Shown here: one piece after another, positions 1 through 46,792 of the stretch
Numbering within the stretch: the stretch's first letter is position 1
Layout: each line of letters opens with the position of its first letter
DNA from: a virus
Reading direction: 5' to 3' (one strand)
DNA length: 64,000 bases
Virus record (IMG/VR): IMGVR_UViG_3300029422_000001
Location: 46,744 to 110,743 of that record
Translations under genes and position numbers: made by a program
The notes under the pieces: model-generated
Told to the model about the DNA's origin: nothing
The model's input: the letters and a program-made list of their open reading frames with translations, nothing else
Databases searched by the model: none

Positions 1-3000
1 AGGTTTTGCCGAAGATCTTATAGGTGATGATTCTAAGATCGAATTTAGAAAATACGTAGCTCGTAATGCCTTCCTTGGCCTTCAATCAGAATCAAGGATG
101 AAAGACATAGCTTCTGTCATAGAAACTCTTTCGGGGCAGCCTCGCGTGGCGGATGCGCTAAGTACGTTTTCCCGGCTGTCGGGTAGAGCGAGGGAGCGGG
201 CTATGGCTATCCGTGGCATACGGTCAAGAATAGAAGAACTTGAATCCGAAATAGAAGATCTTGCTACTCGTCCTCGTAACGTAGATGGAAAAGACCCACA
301 AGCTGAATCCATACAACGAAAAACTAAAGAATTGGAAGATCTTAGAACCAATTACAATAATTCGTTGTCTGAGTTATCAACGTTAATAGGAAAAGAGTTT
401 TCGATAGAAGAGTTGGTAAGTAGAACCGAATCTGTTTTATCATCACCTCTTTCTCCTATAAGTTCACAAGATGTAATAGAGGCCTATGATACGCTTGTAG
501 CTTTTGATGATTATTTCAATGTAAAATCAAGACAGGAAAAGAAGTTTACGGCCAAAGATAAAGCCATGAGATCCTTGGTAAATGAATACCGCAGGAGTTT
601 GATGGATTATAGGAATATGAATAACTTCTTATCTAAGATGCTTGATAAAAGATTCTTAGCTGAGGAAAACAGGGGGTTTTCAAAAGCGCTGTCTTCTCTA
701 TGGTCTACTCCTTATAAGGGGGATGACAAGGTTCCTGATTTTGCAGAGCCTAATAAAGTTGGTGAATATGACACTGATGAGGTAGTAGATCAAGCTGTGT
801 CAGAAGGTAAGATTTCGGAAGACGAAGCTTGGACTATCAAGGCTTTTATGCATGCTCTTGATAGAGTAAGGGAAGATAGGATGAAGGAGGCAGAAGATGA
901 TATAAAAGAGTCACCGCTTACGGAGTCTGTATCGGATGAAGATTATGAGGCTGCTATGGATAATCCTATTATGGTTCCGGTAGTAAGGCAGTCTATAATT
1001 GATAAACTATATACAGGTAATGCCGATCTTCTTACTGCGAGAGAAAAAGATGTGTATGATAAATACAAACAAGATTTTGATGATTATGTATCGTCTTTAG
1101 GTGATAGTCCTGTTAATCTCATTAAATCATTATCTGAAAAGGCTGACAGGCTTACAAGTCCGAGATCAGTATATGAGGAAAATAAAGCTATTATTGATAT
1201 GGCTAAGTCTAATTTGGAGCCAGATCAAAGAAAGGAGCTTGATGATGCTATTTCTTCGTATGTTGATATAATGAACAGGCGGGACAAAGGAGAGAAAGTT
1301 GACGAAGATAAACTTGCAGATTCGGTATTTACCATAGAAGATCTTGGCCAGGTTGGAAATATCACGGACCTCCTTCCTTATATCGAGCAAAACAGGATTA
1401 TTGATAAAGGTCGTATCTCTGAATCTACGTTAAGTAATTTCGGGGAGGATGATGCTAATATAGATTCTCTTGTAAATGAATTAGACGAATCTGATAATAC
1501 GCCGGGAGCCAATATAGATAGCGCCCAGAATCCAGAGACGTTGATGGTTAGAAGAATCTCTAATGATGGCAATGAAAGGTATGAAATTGCGGGTCTTAGA
1601 GCCGATAAATTTATATCTTCCATAAAATCATTGGTTCCTATTCAAATAAGCTCTGAAACGAACGCTAATGGCACTAAAAGGTATTCTCTTAACATAGGTG
1701 GAGAAACGGCTACTATAATTGAACTTCCTTATCATGCGAGATGGTCTATAGATAAAGAATCGGCTCGTGTTCTTAACCGTTACACAGATGTGTCTATTCA
1801 GGACGTGGGTAATTCCTATTCTTTGGTTTATAAGCGTCTTGATTCAGATGAGTTGGTTCCGTACAGAACGGGTGTCGGATTCGGAGAGAATGAAGTAGAT
1901 AAAATAGATCAGGAAGCATTATCTTCTTTGAAAAAAGGAGATAAGGTTAATCTCGAAATAGATGTAAATGATACCTATAATCAGTCTCTTTTTGCCGAAT
2001 ACAATGATGCTGTTCAGTCCGGCGATAAAAAAAGAATAGAATCTGCTGAGAATAAACTGGTGTCCAATATGGTTATCAAGGTCATGAGTGGGAACAGATT
2101 CGTTTCTGTTGTAAAAGCTGACACAGGGGGCATAGATGGTATAAGTAAAATAAGAAGAACGGCTTTTAACAAGTGGAAGAAAGATGCTGGTCGGTCGGCT
2201 ACCATCAGCGTCGGCACGCATGTCGTTGCCCAGACTCTTCCCGGAAGACCGGTGTTTAACATGAAGGTGAACGGTCAAGGATATGGCCAGGTAGAAAATC
2301 TCCCCATTACCGAAAAAGGTGCTGAAAAAGTATCTGATGTCGGATATGTATTAAATGGCAAAGTCGTGCTTAAGAACGGATCTAAATACACAGGCTTCCC
2401 ATTTGCTTATTCTATATTAAATGACAAGGGGAATAATTACAAAAATGTAAGAGTTCCGGTAGTTGTCATCAAAGGTAAAAACGGTCTTAATTATCTTTTC
2501 CCAGTTAGCCTACGTTCTGTAGAATCAGAGGAAGGGCAGAAATGGATGTCTTTTATAGATATGCTGCTTGAATCTGGTGATTCTGAATTGCTACAGATGG
2601 GTCAAGATGATATACAAGATCTTAATGCGTATCTAACCAAGTTAGGCCTTGATCCGGCTTCGTATCAAGTATCGTATTTGAATCCTATTTCAGGGCTTAG
2701 AAAAGCTCGTGAGGCTATAGAAAAATTATCTACGGTTCCTGATGTTGTTAAGTGGGTAGAAGATGAAAGCAGGAATGTGAAAGACATTGTGACGTCTGAA
2801 GTAGAATCTGGAATAGATTTCGAAGGTGAGATGTTTGTCGCTCCTAAGATCAGGATTCAGTTTGGTAAATCATCTTCCAGACCTAAGTCGCTTATAGAGG
2901 ATGATCTTCCTTTCTCTGATGAGGGTAAGATCGTTACTTCTAAAGAAGACGTGGATGTTTATGAAGAGGAAATGTCAGAGGAAGGGGCTGTCCGGGGGAC

Positions 3001-4693
3001 TCAGCCGGCGCCATTAGCTCAGCCGGCTCCTGCGGCACAAGCTGCGCAGTCTTTATCTGGCAAGAAGCGTACCTCCAGGAAAAACTTCTCTCTTATGTTA
3101 AACGAAATAGAATCTCATATAGAAAAAGAAGGATTGCCGTCTTATGCTAATATTTTTGATTTTATAGCAAGGAAGATTGTAGGAGGTGATTTGAGGTTTC
3201 TTCGTGAGAGAGGTAATCCTAAAAGCCTTAAGGAAGAAATGGGATTAGAACCTAAAGGAACAGTAGGTGATAAAATATCCACTCCTTCCAGTAAAGGTGG
3301 TAAGACTTTAGAAGAATATGTTTCTTGGCTTCGTTCTCAAACAGATCAGGTGGTGGTTGATTATGTTGGGCCAAGATATGATGAACAAATTATATCAGAG
3401 TTGAAAAACTTTTTGAAATATATTGATTTTGTTCCAAGCAAGGCTTTGAATTATTCTCTTAGAGTCAATGGCATGGATACCCTAAAAGAATATGGCACAA
3501 AAGAGGAAGTAGAAAAAATGGAATCTGATATCAATAGTTTGGTTTCTAAAGTTTTTCCTACGGTGGATAATAAAACTGTAGAAGATGTTTCTACTGCAAT
3601 AAAATCAAACAACTTGCCTGCCATATGGGAGCCTGTGGAAAGCCTTGATATGACAAACGAGGAAAAAATAGAGTTTTTGAATAACGTAGCAGATTTCCTT
3701 AGCGGCATACCAGAGTATGATGCTGTCGTGGAGTCTATAGAGTCAGAATCAGATAATATTTTAAATGATGGAAAAGAAGGAAGTGCAGAAGGCGGTGCAG
3801 TACGCACTGAGGAAGATGGCGATAAAAAGGGAGATGGAGAAGGCAAAGGACAATCCAGAACAAATGTCGAAGTTGAAAGAAATGTCGAATTACCTGGATC
3901 TGAAGAAGGAAGAGTAGATAACTATAGGAAGAACGGAAATAAGTTCTCTGACATTGCTGAAGTTACTTTATGGCTACTTAGAAGGGCTGCCGGTATAACC
4001 TCTATCCCGGAAGGAGAAGAGGTTTATGTAGAGGGAGATGAGGTTAATAGTATTATGACCGATATGGAATCAAGGTACGGGATAGACACCATCAACCACT
4101 CACATACGACTAAGGCTATAAGGGATCTTGACGGCGTGTCAGGTTATAAAGTAGAATACGGCTTAACCTTTTTGACATACGATCCTTTTATTAGAATATC
4201 CAATCCAAGGAAAGAATCTAAGGCTGCGAAAGACGAGCCTCGTATATCCGAAGAACCGCTTACTCACATATCAAGGGTGACAACCCCTTATTTCCTGTAC
4301 GGCGGTGATGAAGCATATACATCTGTTCCGGCTAAGGTAGAACCTATACCGGAGAAGATAATGGGTCGTAATGGCATTAAATTTGGTATGAGTGTAGTCG
4401 AGCTAACCAAATTAGGATACAAAAAAGCTGGTGGAAACTGGATATATAAATTCTATATGAACTCAGGTGTGTATGATTTGTATAATATCAGTACCGGTGA
4501 AGCGTTTAGGGCAAAACCGGATCTTGGAGTTAAGATAAGTTCCAGTGCATTCATCCGCTCTTTATCTCAATCTGGTAGAAAAATACAAAATATGATGAGT
4601 AATATGAGCCAGGAAGAGATAGATAGGAATAAGAATCTCGTAGAAGGTTCTGATAATTCGGATTCGATAAATGAGTTAAATAAGGAGTGTTGA
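1..4693 (+). CDS. Giant virion-associated protein, 5'-partial (1531 aa from first Met at 98; frame stays open back to nt 2, so more than 1563 aa)
   Basis: No stop in frame from nt 2 to the TGA at 4691-4693. Long acidic, low-complexity protein with PAPLAQPAPAAQAAQ linker. Co-oriented with the other giant ORFs. Confidence 0.8.
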   Translation, partial: GFAEDLIGDDSKIEFRKYVARNAFLGLQSESRMKDIASVIETLSGQPRVADALSTFSRLSGRARERAMAIRGIRSRIEELESEIEDLATRPRNVDGKDPQAESIQRKTKELEDLRTNYNNSLSELSTLIGKEFSIEELVSRTESVLSSPLSPISSQDVIEAYDTLVAFDDYFNVKSRQEKKFTAKDKAMRSLVNEYRRSLMDYRNMNNFLSKMLDKRFLAEENRGFSKALSSLWSTPYKGDDKVPDFAEPNKVGEYDTDEVVDQAVSEGKISEDEAWTIKAFMHALDRVREDRMKEAEDDIKESPLTESVSDEDYEAAMDNPIMVPVVRQSIIDKLYTGNADLLTAREKDVYDKYKQDFDDYVSSLGDSPVNLIKSLSEKADRLTSPRSVYEENKAIIDMAKSNLEPDQRKELDDAISSYVDIMNRRDKGEKVDEDKLADSVFTIEDLGQVGNITDLLPYIEQNRIIDKGRISESTLSNFGEDDANIDSLVNELDESDNTPGANIDSAQNPETLMVRRISNDGNERYEIAGLRADKFISSIKSLVPIQISSETNANGTKRYSLNIGGETATIIELPYHARWSIDKESARVLNRYTDVSIQDVGNSYSLVYKRLDSDELVPYRTGVGFGENEVDKIDQEALSSLKKGDKVNLEIDVNDTYNQSLFAEYNDAVQSGDKKRIESAENKLVSNMVIKVMSGNRFVSVVKADTGGIDGISKIRRTAFNKWKKDAGRSATISVGTHVVAQTLPGRPVFNMKVNGQGYGQVENLPITEKGAEKVSDVGYVLNGKVVLKNGSKYTGFPFAYSILNDKGNNYKNVRVPVVVIKGKNGLNYLFPVSLRSVESEEGQKWMSFIDMLLESGDSELLQMGQDDIQDLNAYLTKLGLDPASYQVSYLNPISGLRKAREAIEKLSTVPDVVKWVEDESRNVKDIVTSEVESGIDFEGEMFVAPKIRIQFGKSSSRPKSLIEDDLPFSDEGKIVTSKEDVDVYEEEMSEEGAVRGTQPAPLAQPAPAAQAAQSLSGKKRTSRKNFSLMLNEIESHIEKEGLPSYANIFDFIARKIVGGDLRFLRERGNPKSLKEEMGLEPKGTVGDKISTPSSKGGKTLEEYVSWLRSQTDQVVVDYVGPRYDEQIISELKNFLKYIDFVPSKALNYSLRVNGMDTLKEYGTKEEVEKMESDINSLVSKVFPTVDNKTVEDVSTAIKSNNLPAIWEPVESLDMTNEEKIEFLNNVADFLSGIPEYDAVVESIESESDNILNDGKEGSAEGGAVRTEEDGDKKGDGEGKGQSRTNVEVERNVELPGSEEGRVDNYRKNGNKFSDIAEVTLWLLRRAAGITSIPEGEEVYVEGDEVNSIMTDMESRYGIDTINHSHTTKAIRDLDGVSGYKVEYGLTFLTYDPFIRISNPRKESKAAKDEPRISEEPLTHISRVTTPYFLYGGDEAYTSVPAKVEPIPEKIMGRNGIKFGMSVVELTKLGYKKAGGNWIYKFYMNSGVYDLYNISTGEAFRAKPDLGVKISSSAFIRSLSQSGRKIQNMMSNMSQEEIDRNKNLVEGSDNSDSINELNKEC

Positions 4694-7730: not shown

Positions 7731-7738
7731 TAATTTTG
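7731..7738 (+). promoter_or_regulatory. TAATTTTG, matching the Bacteroidota sigma-A -7 box (TAnnTTTG), upstream of tnpB
   Basis: Exact consensus match about 22 nt upstream of the ATG at 7760. Confidence 0.3.
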
Positions 7739-8968
7739 TATCATAAAGCTGATAAGATAATGATCAAAGGTTACAAATATAGATTAGATCCTACACCGGA
7801 ACAGATTGTCCAAATGGAGAAAACATTTGGCTGTTGTAGGTATGTCTATAATTGGGCTCTTGATCTTAAAATCAAAACTTATCAGGGTGAAAAACGATCT
7901 TTGTCAGCGGTTGATTTATGCAAGCAGCTAACGTTACTCAAAAAAGATGATAACCATCTTTGGCTAAATGAAGTATCTAATGAATGCTTGCAACAATCTA
8001 TCCGCTGTATGGATAGCGCTTTCACCAAATTCTTTAGAGAACATGCTGGTTTCCCAAAATTCAAATCCAAACATAGGGGCAAGAACGTTTTTAAGAACGT
8101 AAACTCTGTTAAGTTTGATTTTGAAAACAACAGAGTTAAGATTCCTATCATTGGTTGGGTAAAGTTCTTTGCCAATCGGTCTTTTGAAGGAAAGATTGGT
8201 ACGATAACAATATCCAAATCATCAACTGGTAAGTTCTATGCAAGTATCTTAATAGATGACGGAATCCCTAATCCTGACAAGTTTGTTATCAATCCCGATA
8301 CGACAGTGGGAATTGATGTAGGGATCAAGGATTTCGCCGTCCTTTCCAACGGCCAGGTTTTTAGTAATCCGAAGTATTTTGAATCTGCGCAGAAAAGATT
8401 AGGATGCTTGCAAAGAAGAATGTCTCGTAAAAAGAAGGGAAGCAACCGATACAAGAAGGCAAAGCATGATGTTGCTGTTTGTCATGAACGGATTCGAAAT
8501 TGTAGACAAGATTTCTTACATAAGGTTAGTAAGAGGATAGTAAGTGAGAACCAAACTATTATCATCGAAGATCTTAATGTAGGAGGTATGTTGAAAAATC
8601 ATTGCCTTGCTAAAGGGATTGCTTCTGCATCATGGAGCGAGTTCTTTAGGATGTTGCAATATAAATCGGATTGGCGCGGTGTTAATTTAATTCGGATTGG
8701 AAGATTCGAGCCGAGTTCTAAGATGTGCGGATGTGGGTATATCCATCGTGATCTGAAGTTATCGGATCGTGTATGGACTTGTCCTGAATGTGGTGCCGTC
8801 AATGATCGTGATTTACTTGCAGCTAATAATATTAAAAAGTTTGGGTTAGAAAAACAGAATCTTCTACCCCAAGAAAATATTAACAAGACACCGGTGGTGA
8901 ACCGGGAAGGGGACGTGGAGTTGCCTACGTTGGTAGGAACGGTGAAGCGTCAAAATGTACTGGTGTAA
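7736..8968 (+). CDS. tnpB: TnpB, IS200/IS605-family RNA-guided endonuclease (OrfB); no TnpA partner
   Basis: N-terminal KGYKYRLDPTPEQ motif. RuvC-I TVGIDVGIKDFAVLS, RuvC-II IIIEDLNVGGM and a CxxC...CxxC zinc finger (CGCGY...CPECG). RuvC-III NDRDLLAANNI. The track start is TTG; a likely ATG lies at 7760 (MIKGYKYRL). Confidence 0.85.
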   Translation: MYHKADKIMIKGYKYRLDPTPEQIVQMEKTFGCCRYVYNWALDLKIKTYQGEKRSLSAVDLCKQLTLLKKDDNHLWLNEVSNECLQQSIRCMDSAFTKFFREHAGFPKFKSKHRGKNVFKNVNSVKFDFENNRVKIPIIGWVKFFANRSFEGKIGTITISKSSTGKFYASILIDDGIPNPDKFVINPDTTVGIDVGIKDFAVLSNGQVFSNPKYFESAQKRLGCLQRRMSRKKKGSNRYKKAKHDVAVCHERIRNCRQDFLHKVSKRIVSENQTIIIEDLNVGGMLKNHCLAKGIASASWSEFFRMLQYKSDWRGVNLIRIGRFEPSSKMCGCGYIHRDLKLSDRVWTCPECGAVNDRDLLAANNIKKFGLEKQNLLPQENINKTPVVNREGDVELPTLVGTVKRQNVLV

Positions 8969-11257: not shown

Positions 11258-12478
11258 ATGGTGTACGTACAAGACATAAATGGTAAACCTATGATGCCAA
11301 CAACGAGGCATGGTAAGGTTAGGAGACTGCTTAAAGATAAAAAGGCAGTCGTTGTGAACCTATGTCCGTTTACCATCCGATTAACGTACGTCACATCTGA
11401 TTACAAACAGGAAATTGTGTTAGGCGTTGATGCTGGAACTAAGCATGTTGGTCTATCAGCTACAACGAAAAGCAAAGAACTTTACAGTAGTGAAGTGATC
11501 CTTAGAAATGATATCGTAGATCTTTTGTTTACCAGAAGGGAGCTACGAAGAGCAAGACGGAACAGGTTAAGATATAGAAAACTTCGTTTTAATAATAGAA
11601 TAAAAAGCAAGCGTCCAGGATGGACAGCACCTTCGGTGAAGTACAAAATAGACGCCCATATTCGTGTTATTGATAATGTTTTTTCTATACTGCCTGTATC
11701 TCGTATTGTTATTGAAGTAGCTCAATTCGATACTCAAAAGATTAAGAATCCTAATATATCGGGTAAAGAATATCAGGAAGGTGATCAACTTGGGTTTTGG
11801 AACACAAGGGAGTATGTTTTAGCAAGGGATGGGCATAAATGTCAGTATTGTAAAGGAAAGTCAAAAGATAAGATCCTTAATGTTCATCATCTTGAATCCC
11901 GAAAAACGGGAGGTGATTCCCCTTCTAATCTTATTACCTTATGTGAAACTTGTCACAAAGAATACCATAAAGGTAATATAGATTTGAAGATCAAACGGGG
12001 ATCGTCGCTCCGCGACGCGGCCGTAATGGGGATCATGAAATGGAAGTTGTATGAAGAACTGAGATCCAGATACGACAGAGTTTTTATGACGTTTGGTTAC
12101 ATTACGAAACATAATCGGATTAAATATGGGATTGAAAAATCCCATACATCCGACGCGTTTGTCATTTCTAAGAATATTAATGCGAAACGAATCGAACGTC
12201 AATATTTAAAACGTTTAATTCGTAGACATAATAGACAAATACATAAAATGAAAATTTTAAAAGGGGGGAAGAAGAAAAACAATCAAGCTCCTTTTGAGGT
12301 TTTCGGTTTTAGGTTGTTTGATAAAGTGTTGTATAACAATAAAATATTCTTTGTTTATGGAAGGAGAAAATCAGGGAGTTTCAATATCAGGGATTTCAAC
12401 GGAGAAAATTCAAAAGATGTTTCACGCAAAAAGTTTAAACTCATTAGAGGGAAGAGGCATCCGATTATATTAAAGTAA
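11258..12478 (+). CDS. iscB: IscB, OMEGA RNA-guided HNH/RuvC nuclease (Cas9 ancestor family), 406 aa
   Basis: N-terminal PLMP domain (GKPMMPTTRHGKVRRLLK). RuvC-I GVDAGTKHVGLSAT and Arg-rich bridge helix RRELRRARRNRLRYRKLRF. HNH DGHKCQYC...NVHHL...NLITLCETCHKEYH and RuvC-III SHTSDAFVIS. Domain order and spacing match characterised IscBs. Confidence 0.85.
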   Translation: MVYVQDINGKPMMPTTRHGKVRRLLKDKKAVVVNLCPFTIRLTYVTSDYKQEIVLGVDAGTKHVGLSATTKSKELYSSEVILRNDIVDLLFTRRELRRARRNRLRYRKLRFNNRIKSKRPGWTAPSVKYKIDAHIRVIDNVFSILPVSRIVIEVAQFDTQKIKNPNISGKEYQEGDQLGFWNTREYVLARDGHKCQYCKGKSKDKILNVHHLESRKTGGDSPSNLITLCETCHKEYHKGNIDLKIKRGSSLRDAAVMGIMKWKLYEELRSRYDRVFMTFGYITKHNRIKYGIEKSHTSDAFVISKNINAKRIERQYLKRLIRRHNRQIHKMKILKGGKKKNNQAPFEVFGFRLFDKVLYNNKIFFVYGRRKSGSFNIRDFNGENSKDVSRKKFKLIRGKRHPIILK

Positions 12479-20639: not shown

Positions 20640-21258
20640 ATGAGACGAAGATTTCAAATAGGGATGGGGGGTAAATCCCTCGCTTATAATCAATAAAGGC
20701 ATATACATCCAACATGTAGATGGAGGATTATATACAAAAGAAAATTGGTCTAATAAAGGATATTCCAATGATCTATGCAATGGAATAGCTCTTGTAGATA
20801 AAGTGTGTTTTGTTATAGCCACCGAATATATTGGCACATTTCGTTGGGGTAAGGATGGAGAAATAGACAATATATTTGCACAAGATAGTTCTCATATGGA
20901 GACCGTTAAAAAGGATTATTGGGGGCGTGAAAATCAGAATGCGTATCTTAAATATGATACCAGTAATACAGATTACGCTTTTAATAAAGCTAATAGCTAT
21001 TTATTTAAAAATGGTCAAAATGGATATGTAGGTGGCGCCGGAGAGTTTTTTTTGATATCATTGTATGCGAATGAAATAAACGAATGCCTTTTAATGGTAG
21101 GAGGTACGATAATGAGTAATAGAATGTGGACATCCACTCGAAATGAAAAATTTACCTATTCGTGGTATTATGATATAAACATCCAAGGAGATCATTTGGA
21201 TACAGGTTCAAGGGGTAGTTCACGTTATGTCCGCCCCTTTACTGAATTAATTTTATGA
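20640..21258 (+). CDS. MRRRF paralog 2: DUF1566/Fib_succ_major-like (lectin-fold) protein, frameshifted at a G6 tract 25 nt after the ATG
   Basis: ATG at 20640 gives MRRRFQIGMGGKSLAYNQ*. With 5 Gs instead of 6, the frame continues as ...GMGVNPSLIINKGIYIQHVDGG... into the track ORF 20803..21258. That ORF ends ...MWTSTRN...RYVRPF, which resembles the DUF1566 YWSST...VRxV tail. Confidence 0.5.
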
Positions 21259-22088: not shown

Positions 22089-22577
22089 CTAAGCATTAAC
22101 TTCATGACCTCCCCTATCTGTGAAAACTAAACCAATACCTTCTATGATATGTCCTACTACAGGAGCTTTGTCAAATTCCTCCTTCGTAGCCCAAGTAGCA
22201 TTATCAGGCATAAGATCCTTGAATGCGTCCGAAACATCACCTTGACACCAGCAGTTATTTGATGTAACAATGCCTTTCCCTTCGATATTGATATACATTT
22301 TTCTTCCACCACATCCAAGGCTGTTCCATCCGCTCGGTACGTTTTCCACCATAGGCTTAAGCACCCAGCTTACACCGTCTATCCTAACCCATCCAGGATC
22401 GTCTTTGTGCTTGTCGTACAAGTTTTGCCAAAAAGAGCATTCGTAGCACCATCCCCTGTCTTCCATGACAGTTCTTATCTCACTCCTTTCAAATCCATCT
22501 GCATCCATCGTGTGCGGAGAATGAGGCTGGTGAGGGGTGCCACATTTTGGACATACGAGTTTTAAATTCTTTTCCAT
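22089..22577 (-). CDS. Hypothetical Cys/His-rich protein (162 aa)
   Basis: N-terminal CPKCG...H..H and several internal Cys. Last gene of the minus-strand array, or lies within the right flank of the TnpB-2 IS. Confidence 0.5.
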   Translation of the reverse strand: MEKNLKLVCPKCGTPHQPHSPHTMDADGFERSEIRTVMEDRGWCYECSFWQNLYDKHKDDPGWVRIDGVSWVLKPMVENVPSGWNSLGCGGRKMYINIEGKGIVTSNNCWCQGDVSDAFKDLMPDNATWATKEEFDKAPVVGHIIEGIGLVFTDRGGHEVNA

Positions 22578-22644
22578 GTTATGAAAAATATTAAATTAAA
22601 TAAAAATCTATTACATTTCTTTATAAGTTTCGGAATGCACCTTC

Positions 22645-23877
22645 TTAACAAAATACATTCGTAATCCTTACCGGGTTAAACAATAACCCTCTATCAATTA
22701 TCCTTTGAATGGATTCACAGGAATCACCGACTACTTTTCTCATAATGTTTAATGCCCCATTTACATCAGCATTTATGAGTTTTCCTACTGAAGATTGAAA
22801 CAATCCTCGTTTCTTCCTTCTTCCTAAATAGCTATCATGTTTTCCTATCTTCTCAAATGCCAATGAATCACATTTTGAAGTATATGATTCTTCGTGAATA
22901 ACTATTTCAATACCAGATAATTCACATTTATATTCTAAATAACTTACTAATCTCGCAAAAGGGATTTGGGTAAACTTTTGGTTGTTTCTTTTTCCCATGT
23001 TTACTCCAGTTTTCCATCCCTTGTTATAGCCTACAACTAATTTTGTTATCTTAGAATCGATAAGTAAATCAACTATCTTTCTACTGATTTTATGAAAGAC
23101 ATCTTCTATGTACTGTTCTCTATCATAATATAATTTCTTTATTCGTTTTGTTGTTCCTTTTATCTTTTGTAAATCTTTGATACTATTTAATTTAGCAAGT
23201 GTTTTATTAAATCTCTGATTATATGATTTAACAAAATTACCGCTAAAAAGATAGGTAAAATCTTCACTAACTAATGTTACAAGATTGTCTATTCCTAAAT
23301 CAATAGAAGCAACTTTTTCTTCCCTACCTTTAGATACTTCAGTATCTTTTACCTCATAAATGATTTCTATCTTATATCCACACGCTAATGGTTCTATTCT
23401 AATCTGTTTAAAATCTTTAATCAAATCAGAATACTTTTCATATTGAGGAATATCTATTGAAAGATTTTTTGATAGGATTATTTTCCCATCTTTTATTCTG
23501 CAACTCTGACTCGTGTAATACAAATTAAACTCAGAACCTCTCTTCCTGTAATTAGGAAGACCTGGTTTTTTCTTATACTTATTAGGATGTTTTTTGTAAT
23601 CTTAGACCGATTTGTAATAGCTTTTTATATTCTTATCAAGAATACGAAGAACTTGTTGAGAGCATTGAGCCTTTAGTAATCTGTAATTAATGTCTCCATC
23701 TAAGTTCTTGGTATTCTTCATGATAGAATCAAGTTTAAAATAGGATAACCACTTATCTTCTTTAGAAAGTGTTTCTCTGAAAATATATAATGCCTGATTG
23801 TACAAGTTATTGCTAATCTTGCACAGAGATGATATATTTTCATTGTTTCCTATGTTGAACTTGTATGCTAATCTCAT
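22645..23877 (-). pseudogene. tnpB: TnpB copy 2 (IS200/IS605-family) interrupted by a single in-frame TAA (minus-strand codon at 23602-23604). Otherwise a full-length, about 410-codon reading frame.
   Basis: Track ORFs 23602..23877 (MRLAYKFNIG...) and 22645..23523 are in the same frame: ...YKSV*DYKKHPNKYKKKPGLPNYRKRGSEFNLYYTSQ... RuvC D (ASIDLGIDN), E (IHEESYTSKCD), zinc finger and D (NADVNGALNI) are all retained. Confidence 0.75.
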
Positions 23878-23989
23878 GATTTTTAATACTATAAATATTG
23901 TCTATGAATCATATATCTAAGATACGAATTACATTTGTATTACAGAATAGAATCTATTATTTTTAATGTTATTTTGCACCATATTATTT

Positions 23990-24181
23990 TCAACATAAAA
24001 ATTTGTAACCTGGTTTTACCACTTCAGCTTCTTCTCTCGTATCAAACATTAAGGTAGTAGTTGATTCTGTACATTCACAAATGTAAGATACTTCCACCCA
24101 CCACCTAAAAATCCCAGAGCCATAATCATCATAGTACGGCTCAGAAAGAACTTCTTCTACATACCCATCCAAATAATTCAT
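23990..24181 (-). CDS. Hypothetical small protein (63 aa)
   Basis: ORF in the tightly packed minus-strand array, overlapping its neighbour by 4 nt. Confidence 0.4.
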   Translation of the reverse strand: MNYLDGYVEEVLSEPYYDDYGSGIFRWWVEVSYICECTESTTTLMFDTREEAEVVKPGYKFLC

Positions 24182-46408: not shown

Positions 46409-46792
46409 TTATTCTACATCAAAAAGCTGATCTAACACCAATAATTCGGCATCCATATCTTCATCTTTCGGGAAACGAACTTTTATGTTTCCGAACTTAG
46501 ATGTCTTAAACAAGATGTAGGGGTTCATATCTTCGGCGGTCACCGGCTTATATTCCTTAACTTCCGACATCTTGAGATACCAGTCGCCTATTTTTACAAA
46601 TCCGGAGAAGATAGAACACAGATGCGCTTTTACGGACTGTATCTCCTTTTTATCTTTGAAAGGTATAATTTCGTCCTTTCCCCTTATCCTGATTGACAAG
46701 AAAGGACGAATGTTATCTGTTTCATTTTGAAATTTGAAGCCTGTTATGGCTTGCTTGGGGATTCTTCTTCCCATTAATATAAAATAGCTCAT
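46409..46792 (-). CDS. Hypothetical protein (127 aa)
   Basis: ORF, minus-strand array. Confidence 0.5.
   Translation of the reverse strand: MSYFILMGRRIPKQAITGFKFQNETDNIRPFLSIRIRGKDEIIPFKDKKEIQSVKAHLCSIFSGFVKIGDWYLKMSEVKEYKPVTAEDMNPYILFKTSKFGNIKVRFPKDEDMDAELLVLDQLFDVE

Follow-up and report, generated by a model that had tools for sequence, protein, structure and literature searches.

A phage-borne tnpB reading frame interrupted by a single TAA codon

The interrupted frame and its relatives

We analysed a stretch of viral DNA of 64,000 nucleotides (positions 46,744 to 110,743 of the IMG/VR record IMGVR_UViG_3300029422_000001; hereafter the window), in which two neighbouring open reading frames (ORFs) on the minus strand together make up the gene of a TnpB, tnpB, carried by a short mobile element. 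The first ORF (23602..23877) encodes 91 amino acids (aa), and the second (22645..23523), which begins with TTG, encodes 292 aa. Both lie in one common frame. In the translation of window:22642-23940, this frame runs from the ATG at 23877 to the terminator at 22647-22645 over 410 codons, and its sole internal stop is the TAA at 23604-23602; the joined minus-strand translation reads MRLAYKF...YYKSV*DYKKHPNKYKKKPGLPNYRKRG...NVFC*. The 26 codons that link the two ORFs (23601-23524) are free of stops. The original prediction, made from the DNA letters by a model, had described two collinear ORFs split by this one TAA with an open linker of 26 codons, and the translation agrees with it on both points, including the coordinates. 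The parts of the gene are as follows.

23605..23877, minus strand: tnpB codons 1-91, the N-terminal WED/REC part, equal to the 91-aa ORF (from the translation)
23602..23604, minus strand: premature TAA at codon 92, arisen from the Gln codon CAA by C→T at window 23604 (minus-strand base)
22648..23601, minus strand: tnpB codons 93-410, open in frame, with RuvC-I D193, G283, E329/E330 and D371
22645..22647, minus strand: normal tnpB terminator TAA, followed by G, giving the same tetranucleotide as at the premature stop (TAAG)

The joined 410-aa product matches the Pfam families OrfB_IS605 (PF01385; E 9e-23, 81 bits, cut-off 30.5) and Cas12f1-like_TNB (PF07282; E 2.5e-12, 47 bits, cut-off 26.3). 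It also aligns over the full length with hundreds of proteins of 410 aa from phage contigs of ~150 kb, the best at 93% identity (E 1e-250), which indicates that the collinearity of the two ORFs is not due to chance. With a TAA at codon 92, the window copy does not have the complete ORF of a TnpB, and it is a pseudogene of this family.

Codon 92 is CAA in 67 of the 74 related loci from IMG/VR and CAG in three others. At the position of the stop, an alignment of 17 homologues (60-99% identity) holds Gln in 15 sequences, His in one and Lys in one. Since CAA is the ancestral codon in the relatives, one C→T transition at window base 23604, changing CAA to TAA, accounts for the stop. The intact allele also exists: a protein of the public collection, P0150, is the window protein with Gln at position 92, its other 409 residues being identical. 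At least 14 contigs, representing 8 different phage neighbourhoods or backbones, carry P0150, and the element DNA of these contigs differs from that of the window at 2-4 of 1,415 nucleotides, while the flanks differ by 2-15%. Intact alleles at the same locus (L097-L104) read TCCAAGAT at the codon-92 site.

Exactly the same 91-aa product is listed for 12 contigs, one of them 151,291 bp long, and the T at 23604 is present in all three contigs that we checked (L002-L004), namely a k119_ contig of ERZ27297370, a METAG scaffold of ERZ28584550 and a Logan contig of SRR4481704. Over 7.8-20 kb, these three match the window with 99.8-100% identity, so that the TAA allele marks one essentially clonal phage strain. 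The stop is thus reproducible across assemblies, and its origin as an assembly error is not supported. Among the readings offered by the original prediction, that of a very recent nonsense mutation is the one that stands, given the prevalence of CAA in the relatives and an exact intact allele only 2-4 nucleotides away. We consider it highly probable that both ORFs belong to one tnpB gene, which was inactivated very recently when a single C→T change converted the Gln codon 92 into TAA.

The TnpB family and its mobile element

The residues that would form the RuvC active site can be followed through the whole family.

23301-23299, minus strand: RuvC-I D193, an invariant column
23031-23029, minus strand: G283, replacing the canonical RuvC-II Glu ('LVVGYNKGW'), an invariant column
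22893-22888, minus strand: relocated Glu, E329/E330, conserved, with E329 six residues before C336
22767-22765, minus strand: RuvC-III D371 in NADVN, conserved

Across 33 homologues, D193, E329/E330 and D371 show no or almost no variation, and they would provide the D-E-D triad of a RuvC nuclease. Between RuvC-II and RuvC-III, every family member has only C336 and H347, both in 'SKCDSLAFEKIGKHDSYLGRRKKRGLFQSS', and not the four ligands of a C4 zinc finger. Some TnpB branches have lost the zinc finger (PMC10691335), so this absence does not disqualify the family from being TnpB. The original prediction, in which RuvC-I, RuvC-II, RuvC-III and the zinc finger were all intact, was therefore right for D193 and D371, whereas the canonical RuvC-II Glu is a Gly with a Glu relocated elsewhere, and no C4 zinc finger is present. 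A Glu→Gly replacement with a compensating Glu and an NADxN motif has been described in TnpB clades (Altae-Tran et al. 2023 PNAS, PMC10691335), as has an alternative Glu, 'Ealt', that precedes the zinc finger by six residues (Yoon et al. 2023 NAR, PMC10711439). Judged by these motifs, the window family matches the rearranged RuvC-II or Ealt type, as found in several TnpB clades and in Fanzors.

An AlphaFold2 model was built on P0001, an intact homologue with 93% identity (predicted local distance difference test, pLDDT, 78.5; low confidence at residues 334-351). Its top Foldseek matches are ISFba1 TnpB (8iaz, E 2e-15), Cas12f, ISDra2 TnpB and the mimivirus Fanzor2. The fold search was needed for clear matches: a single-protein sequence search of PDB returned no solved natural TnpB, the sole TnpB-like match being an AI-designed RNA-guided nuclease, and a profile search of PDB reached ISDra2 TnpB only weakly (E ~0.09). 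In the P0001 model, residue 92 lies within a predicted helix (residues 70-96) of the REC region, hence the remainder of REC and the whole of RuvC are missing from the 91-aa product.

The gene is part of an element whose boundaries we set from alignments of 77 related phage loci.

22576..23980, minus strand: whole mobile element, ~1,405 bp, comprising left end, tnpB, 3' structured RNA region and right end
23878..23980, minus strand: left end, 103 bp upstream of the tnpB ATG, conserved across loci and occurring once in the window
22576..22805, minus strand: conserved structured RNA region, an ωRNA/reRNA-like scaffold, which overlaps the 3' end of tnpB and stops exactly at the right end
22556..22575, minus strand: right flank, the putative guide portion of the ωRNA (GGAAAAGAATTTAAAACTCG), also the start of a 162-aa ORF
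22089..22577, minus strand: the neighbouring 162-aa ORF, in whose ATG the 'AT' (22577-22576) is the last two bases of the right end (..ACAT)

Similarity among the 77 loci starts at GGTGCAAAATAAC (window 23980) and ends after ...TTTTTCATAACAT (window 22576). The loci show 23 distinct junction pairs, with 12 distinct left contexts and 17 kinds of right flank, and one contig carries two copies (L008 and L028), from which we conclude that the element is mobile. On the left, the TAT at 23983-23981 adjoins the element 5', and TAT occupies positions -3 to -1 in all 12 distinct left contexts, preceded by A at -4 in 10 of them. Left flanks that end in TAT and a right end in ACAT are both compatible with a crossover at 'AT'.

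The window copy has no transposase gene, only 103 bp separating the left end from the tnpB ATG and leaving no place for the adjoining TnpA of an IS607 element. In two relatives, L059 and L060 (~2400-3000), we find a full TnpA with a MerR-like helix-turn-helix and the serine-recombinase motif 'YSRVSTNKQ', its 3' end overlapping the start of tnpB, and in L070 and L076 only a 3' remnant of TnpA is kept. The left tip of these relatives is similar, with TTAT directly before GGTTT or GATTT. Because tnpA or its remnants are present in relatives and missing here, the window element is, by its gene content, classed as a non-autonomous, TnpA-less derivative of the IS607 type, and elements such as those of L059 and L060 are likely the autonomous relatives that mobilise the short ones.

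RNAalifold, applied to the last ~230 nt of 14 diverse copies, predicts 59 pairs, 7 of them with compensatory double changes, and sequence variability is minimal in the final ~100 nt of the tnpB ORF. This predicted right-end structure fits a guide RNA scaffold. At the level of sequence, the arrangement is that of a TnpB-ωRNA locus, with a structured 3' RNA reaching the right end and a variable flank beyond it. Rfam gave no match for the element (E ≤ 1) or for the whole window (gathering thresholds), including any group I intron, RAGATH-18 or known ωRNA family, and a promoter and terminator scan of the region gave counts at background. The right flank varies among insertion contexts, the 20-nt flank of the window occurs once in the window, and, from how TnpB elements work, it may act as the guide.

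The closest complete genome that we found in the phage collection, csAssE-Sib (OR575929.1), does not have the element and carries instead a 232-bp stretch with an 82-aa lipoprotein-like ORF. Its empty allele reads ATAT followed by GGAAAATAATTTAAAACTCG, with one mismatch to the right flank of the window. By analogy with characterised TnpB elements, ATAT followed by GGAAAATAATTT would be a candidate homing site in an empty-site phage of the csAssE-Sib type.

The element is 10-50 times less diverged between phage backbones than the surrounding phage DNA (window compared with L007, L089 and L093-L104). In L007 it is 99.4% identical to that of the window, against 89.5% for the left flank, and in L097-L104 it is 99.7-99.9% identical, against 85-98% for the flanks. 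This difference in divergence suggests that one allele of the element recently spread by recombination or homing over diverged backbones at the same locus.

Decay of the element and the standing of other explanations

Sister alleles occupy the same locus (63-aa ORF, element, 162-aa ORF) and are near-identical to that of the window, with independent lesions. A +A in an A6 run at codon 94 is shared by L087-L089, and L087 has a second +A at codon 295; the element of L089 differs from that of the window solely by the first of these insertions and by the base at codon 92. We also find a -A at codon 13 (L005), a change of the start codon from ATG to ACG (L006) and a nonsense change at codon 334 (S334*, TCA→TAA; L090-L092). 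Stops or frameshifts disrupt 11 of the 77 IMG/VR copies. Further disruptions, which the original prediction would have taken for plain decay, are thus absent from the window copy and present across the sister alleles of its locus. The intact copies, compared with the window sequence, have a ratio of nonsynonymous to synonymous substitution rates (dN/dS) of ~0.12 across a wide range of divergence, and on this ratio the intact members are considered to be under purifying selection. Such a pattern is characteristic of a selfish gene, whose function is maintained through its own spread and whose resident copies decay one by one: as selection acts on the spread of the element and not on a benefit to the phage, resident copies decay repeatedly.

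The A6 and A7 runs that lie just 3' of codon 92 (window 23584-23600, minus-strand 'GATTACAAAAAACAT...AAGAAAAAACC') are frameshift hotspots of the family. Lesions occur here in L063/L064 (codons 95-99), L065 (about codon 112), L087-L089 (codon 94) and the P0128/P0130 fragments. The frameshift at codon 94 is explained by the A6 run as a mutational hotspot.

A sequence of events that would account for these features can be proposed. A 1.4-kb, TnpA-less element of the IS607 type circulates among human-gut phages of ~150 kb related to csAssE-Sib. As in characterised TnpBs, intact copies would make TnpB and a right-end RNA with a 3' part read from the flank; together these would cut element-free alleles bearing the target-adjacent motif (TAM) followed by the flank sequence, and recombination repair would copy the element in. 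The low divergence of the element relative to its flanks, and the empty csAssE-Sib site that nearly matches the right flank, are consistent with such homing. In the window strain, translation would stop after 91 residues, inside the REC helix, and no functional nuclease would be made; the nuclease half would be switched off, with the RNA half intact in sequence. As the window copy is one or two mutations away from an intact allele, there is no second lesion, and the mutation is young.

Some points weigh against this reading. Support for the base call comes from the concordance of assemblies, some of which may derive from one person or study. We infer both the loss of function of the truncated product and the absence of low-level read-through. 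In addition, the lesions at codons 92 and 94 arose on the same allele background less than 10 nucleotides apart, which could hint at selected inactivation.

Selected inactivation is a variant of the explanation by a recent nonsense mutation: once the element is fixed at the locus, loss of TnpB would favour the phage. In its favour, near-identical alleles of one locus carry at least five independent lesions, of which two lie within 10 nt on the same background, and in the S51 allele group broken forms (12 + 10 contigs) are about as frequent as intact ones (14 contigs). However, contig counts are not independent samples, two of the lesions lie in A-run hotspots, and intact alleles are common, P0149 being present on 60 contigs and in the index of 103 blocks of the collection. 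The same pattern is expected when a selfish gene decays neutrally. Self-targeting of the phage as the cause of a selected inactivation was considered and rejected, as the 20-nt flank equivalent to the guide has no second match in the window with up to three mismatches. We regard selection for the knock-out as unlikely.

The remaining explanations depend on how TAA is read in this phage. We counted the terminators of the window's non-overlapping ORFs with 100 aa or more, 68 in number: TAA ends 42 of them, 10 as TAAG, the context shared by the premature stop and tnpB's own terminator. A screen for in-frame stops, in which stop-free segments of csAssE-Sib were aligned to the window over ~19,000 residues, gave 16 apparent cases. 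Fifteen are antisense or alternative-frame ORFs or lie upstream of the true start, and the sixteenth is a +G frameshift in a G-run, with no stop codon; in real genes, the alignment thus contains no other in-frame stop. The window has no tRNA genes. Positions 1-150,000 of csAssE-Sib encode tRNAs Cys-GCA, Arg-CCT, Gln-TTG, Met-CAT, Tyr-GTA and Lys-TTT, all ordinary, and no suppressor tRNA was found there or in the window; the original prediction had proposed such a check for the full genome. None of the 74 IMG/VR loci has a stop at codon 92, which occurs only in contigs 99.8-100% identical to the window.

In a recoded phage, the reassigned stop would be in frame in many genes and avoided as a terminator, and TAA shows neither feature here. 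Genome-wide reassignment of the stop is excluded at the scale of the window, as the original prediction had argued from the intact giant ORFs. Its alternative of context-dependent read-through is not supported, TAA being the main terminator, TAAG a common context and the stop not conserved in relatives, and programmed local read-through of the TAA has no support. Frameshifting by -1 at the A-run was likewise discarded, since the TAA precedes the run.

A leaky stop can nevertheless be imagined as a valve, with a phage-supplied tRNA-Gln(UUG), a fully expressed guide RNA and a nuclease dosage tuned down after fixation, a milder version being that the repeated knock-outs at the locus are positively selected instead of neutral; we find this very improbable. 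We give marginally less credence to the related proposal of a throttle, in which near-cognate decoding of UAA by tRNA-Gln(UUG) restores Q92 and yields a little full-length TnpB. Such read-through would recreate the exact ancestral protein, the related phage carries a tRNA-Gln(TTG), and the remaining ORF and the ωRNA-like region are undamaged. Nevertheless, the stop is not conserved in other lineages, its TAAG context is that of the real terminator and of 10 other terminators, and the undamaged remainder is fully explained by the youth of the mutation. Moreover, both release factors recognise UAA, which in bacteria is generally the tightest of the stop codons.

An error of sequencing or assembly, with C as the true base and the gene intact, has the same very slight probability as the throttle. 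A single-base change is typical of an error, and intact alleles are 2-4 nt away; against this, the T is shared by at least three further assemblies with differing naming styles, the 91-aa product recurs on 12 contigs, and the site is outside a homopolymer. This explanation, also raised in the original prediction, is not supported.

It is even less probable that the gene is functionally split, with the 91-aa and C-terminal pieces, or the RuvC piece alone, still working. The C-terminal 318 codons, with all catalytic residues, are indeed open, but a TTG 26 codons past the stop is the earliest candidate for a new start, the break falls inside the predicted REC helix, and no relative has a conserved split, others being broken elsewhere. 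Reassignment of TAA to an amino acid such as Gln in this phage can be dismissed as next to impossible: recoded gut phages are known, Gln is the ancestral residue and csAssE-Sib has a tRNA-Gln gene, but this tRNA has the ordinary anticodon TTG, TAA ends most long ORFs including tnpB, the ~19,000 aligned residues hold no other in-frame stop, no suppressor tRNA was found in the window or the 150 kb of csAssE-Sib, and the TAA at codon 92 is confined to a single strain.

The window is no longer a possible lead to TAA recoding in gut phages, since there is no such recoding in it, and the split TnpB should be annotated as a pseudogene. The surrounding family is an unsurprising addition to the IS607 or relocated-glutamate TnpB group, and the nonsense allele itself is ordinary. 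The family nevertheless represents an uncharacterised IS607-type TnpB, without zinc finger and with a relocated glutamate, associated with an (A)TAT flank motif. The element appears to have swept recently across diverged gut-phage backbones of ~150 kb and now to be decaying copy by copy, which makes the allele series a natural record of the loss of a selfish RNA-guided nuclease. The intact allele (P0150/P0149) could be a candidate for a compact nuclease.

Known systems, neighbouring genes and variation at the element ends

The closest known systems are the IS607 TnpB clades of the Ealt or RIIr type (PMC10691335, PMC10711439). They share with the window family the Gly in place of the RuvC-II Glu ('VVGYN'), the Glu at E329, the NADxN motif and a structured right-end RNA, and the serine-recombinase TnpA of L059/L060 overlaps the start of tnpB as in these clades. 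The nearest solved fold to the P0001 model, that of ISFba1 TnpB, is also from IS607. Unlike these clades, the window copy has no tnpA, has lost the C4 zinc finger, carries a premature stop and has no Rfam match, including RAGATH-18. The junction and flank motif, (A)TAT/AT, also differs from the junction dinucleotide GG reported for ISXfa1 (PMC10711439). We found no relevant paper on csAssE in the literature.

ISDra2 TnpB, from the IS200/IS605 group, is the canonical homing nuclease, with the canonical RuvC-II Glu, a C4 zinc finger and a Y1 TnpA partner. The window family resembles it (PDB 8EXA/8H1J) in fold and in domain order, and D193 aligns with its RuvC-I Asp. In ISDra2 the 3' end of the gene and the ωRNA overlap, and the right flank supplies the guide, as is presumably the case for the window family. 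The two have only ~15% identity, and the window family differs in its relocated Glu, the absence of the zinc finger and its serine-recombinase lineage. TldRs are nuclease-dead TnpB derivatives domesticated by phages (PMC10705468), and the window copy is similarly a phage-borne TnpB relative that probably no longer cuts. TldRs, however, are full-length, with RuvC sites mutated or truncated, and are conserved in this state, whereas here the catalytic residues are intact and the nonsense change is specific to one strain.

Some crAss-like and Lak phages of the gut read TAG as Gln or TGA as Trp. The window phage resembles such recoded phages in being a gut phage with an in-frame stop where relatives carry Gln. 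It differs in having a single in-frame stop, in one gene of one strain, in the codon concerned, which is its main terminator, in the lack of a suppressor tRNA in the sequences searched (the window and positions 1-150,000 of csAssE-Sib) and in the normal reading of all its other genes.

The window contains a further TnpB gene, TnpB-1 (7736-8968, plus strand), which is intact, encodes 410 aa and matches Pfam OrfB_IS605 and TNB. The original prediction had named the split gene a second TnpB copy, and had proposed a protein alignment in which low identity would mean independent insertions. This alignment gives 22% identity over part of the length, so that the two are unrelated insertions and not paralogous copies. 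TnpB-1 also has, in contrast to the split TnpB, an HTH_OrfB_IS605 domain, and it scores higher on the TNB (zinc-finger) model. A 406-aa ORF at 11258-12478 (plus strand), also found in L005, has an IscB-like architecture, with RRXRR (PF14239, 5e-57) and HNH. Together, these make three unrelated genes of OMEGA-type architecture in the 64-kb stretch.

The +G frameshift mentioned above affects the window homologue (20640-21258) of the 205-aa csAssE-Sib protein WOZ57324.1, at about codon 10, where the G-run at 20666-20671 has six G against five. It leaves a 151-aa ORF that starts with GTG. A 151-aa call is also made at the equivalent position in L002, L098 and L101, and the 205-aa form is found in L097, L099 and L090.

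Several copies vary at the left end. A 27-bp deletion (equivalent to window 23964-23990) in L005, L006, L007, L012, L069 and L093-L096 removes the last bases of the flank and the tip of the left end, and it lies between short direct repeats (AAAATAATA). It probably immobilises these copies, several of which still have an intact tnpB.

On the right, the 162-aa ORF has a chimeric start codon, part of it from the element and part from the phage. At the same locus, a constant left junction is combined with four right junctions (window 22556-22580, L008/L013, L011 and L062), each of which is found directly 3' of ATAT or CTAT in the element-free csAssE-Sib sequence (L001 3140-3460). It looks as if deletions adjacent to the right end, or re-insertions, end at the target motif, with progressive loss of the 82-aa lipoprotein-like gene. 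Finally, at the right end of L018 (~4290-4315), the tip 'TTTTCATAACAT' is tandemly duplicated before the flank GGGTGTCAAATG.

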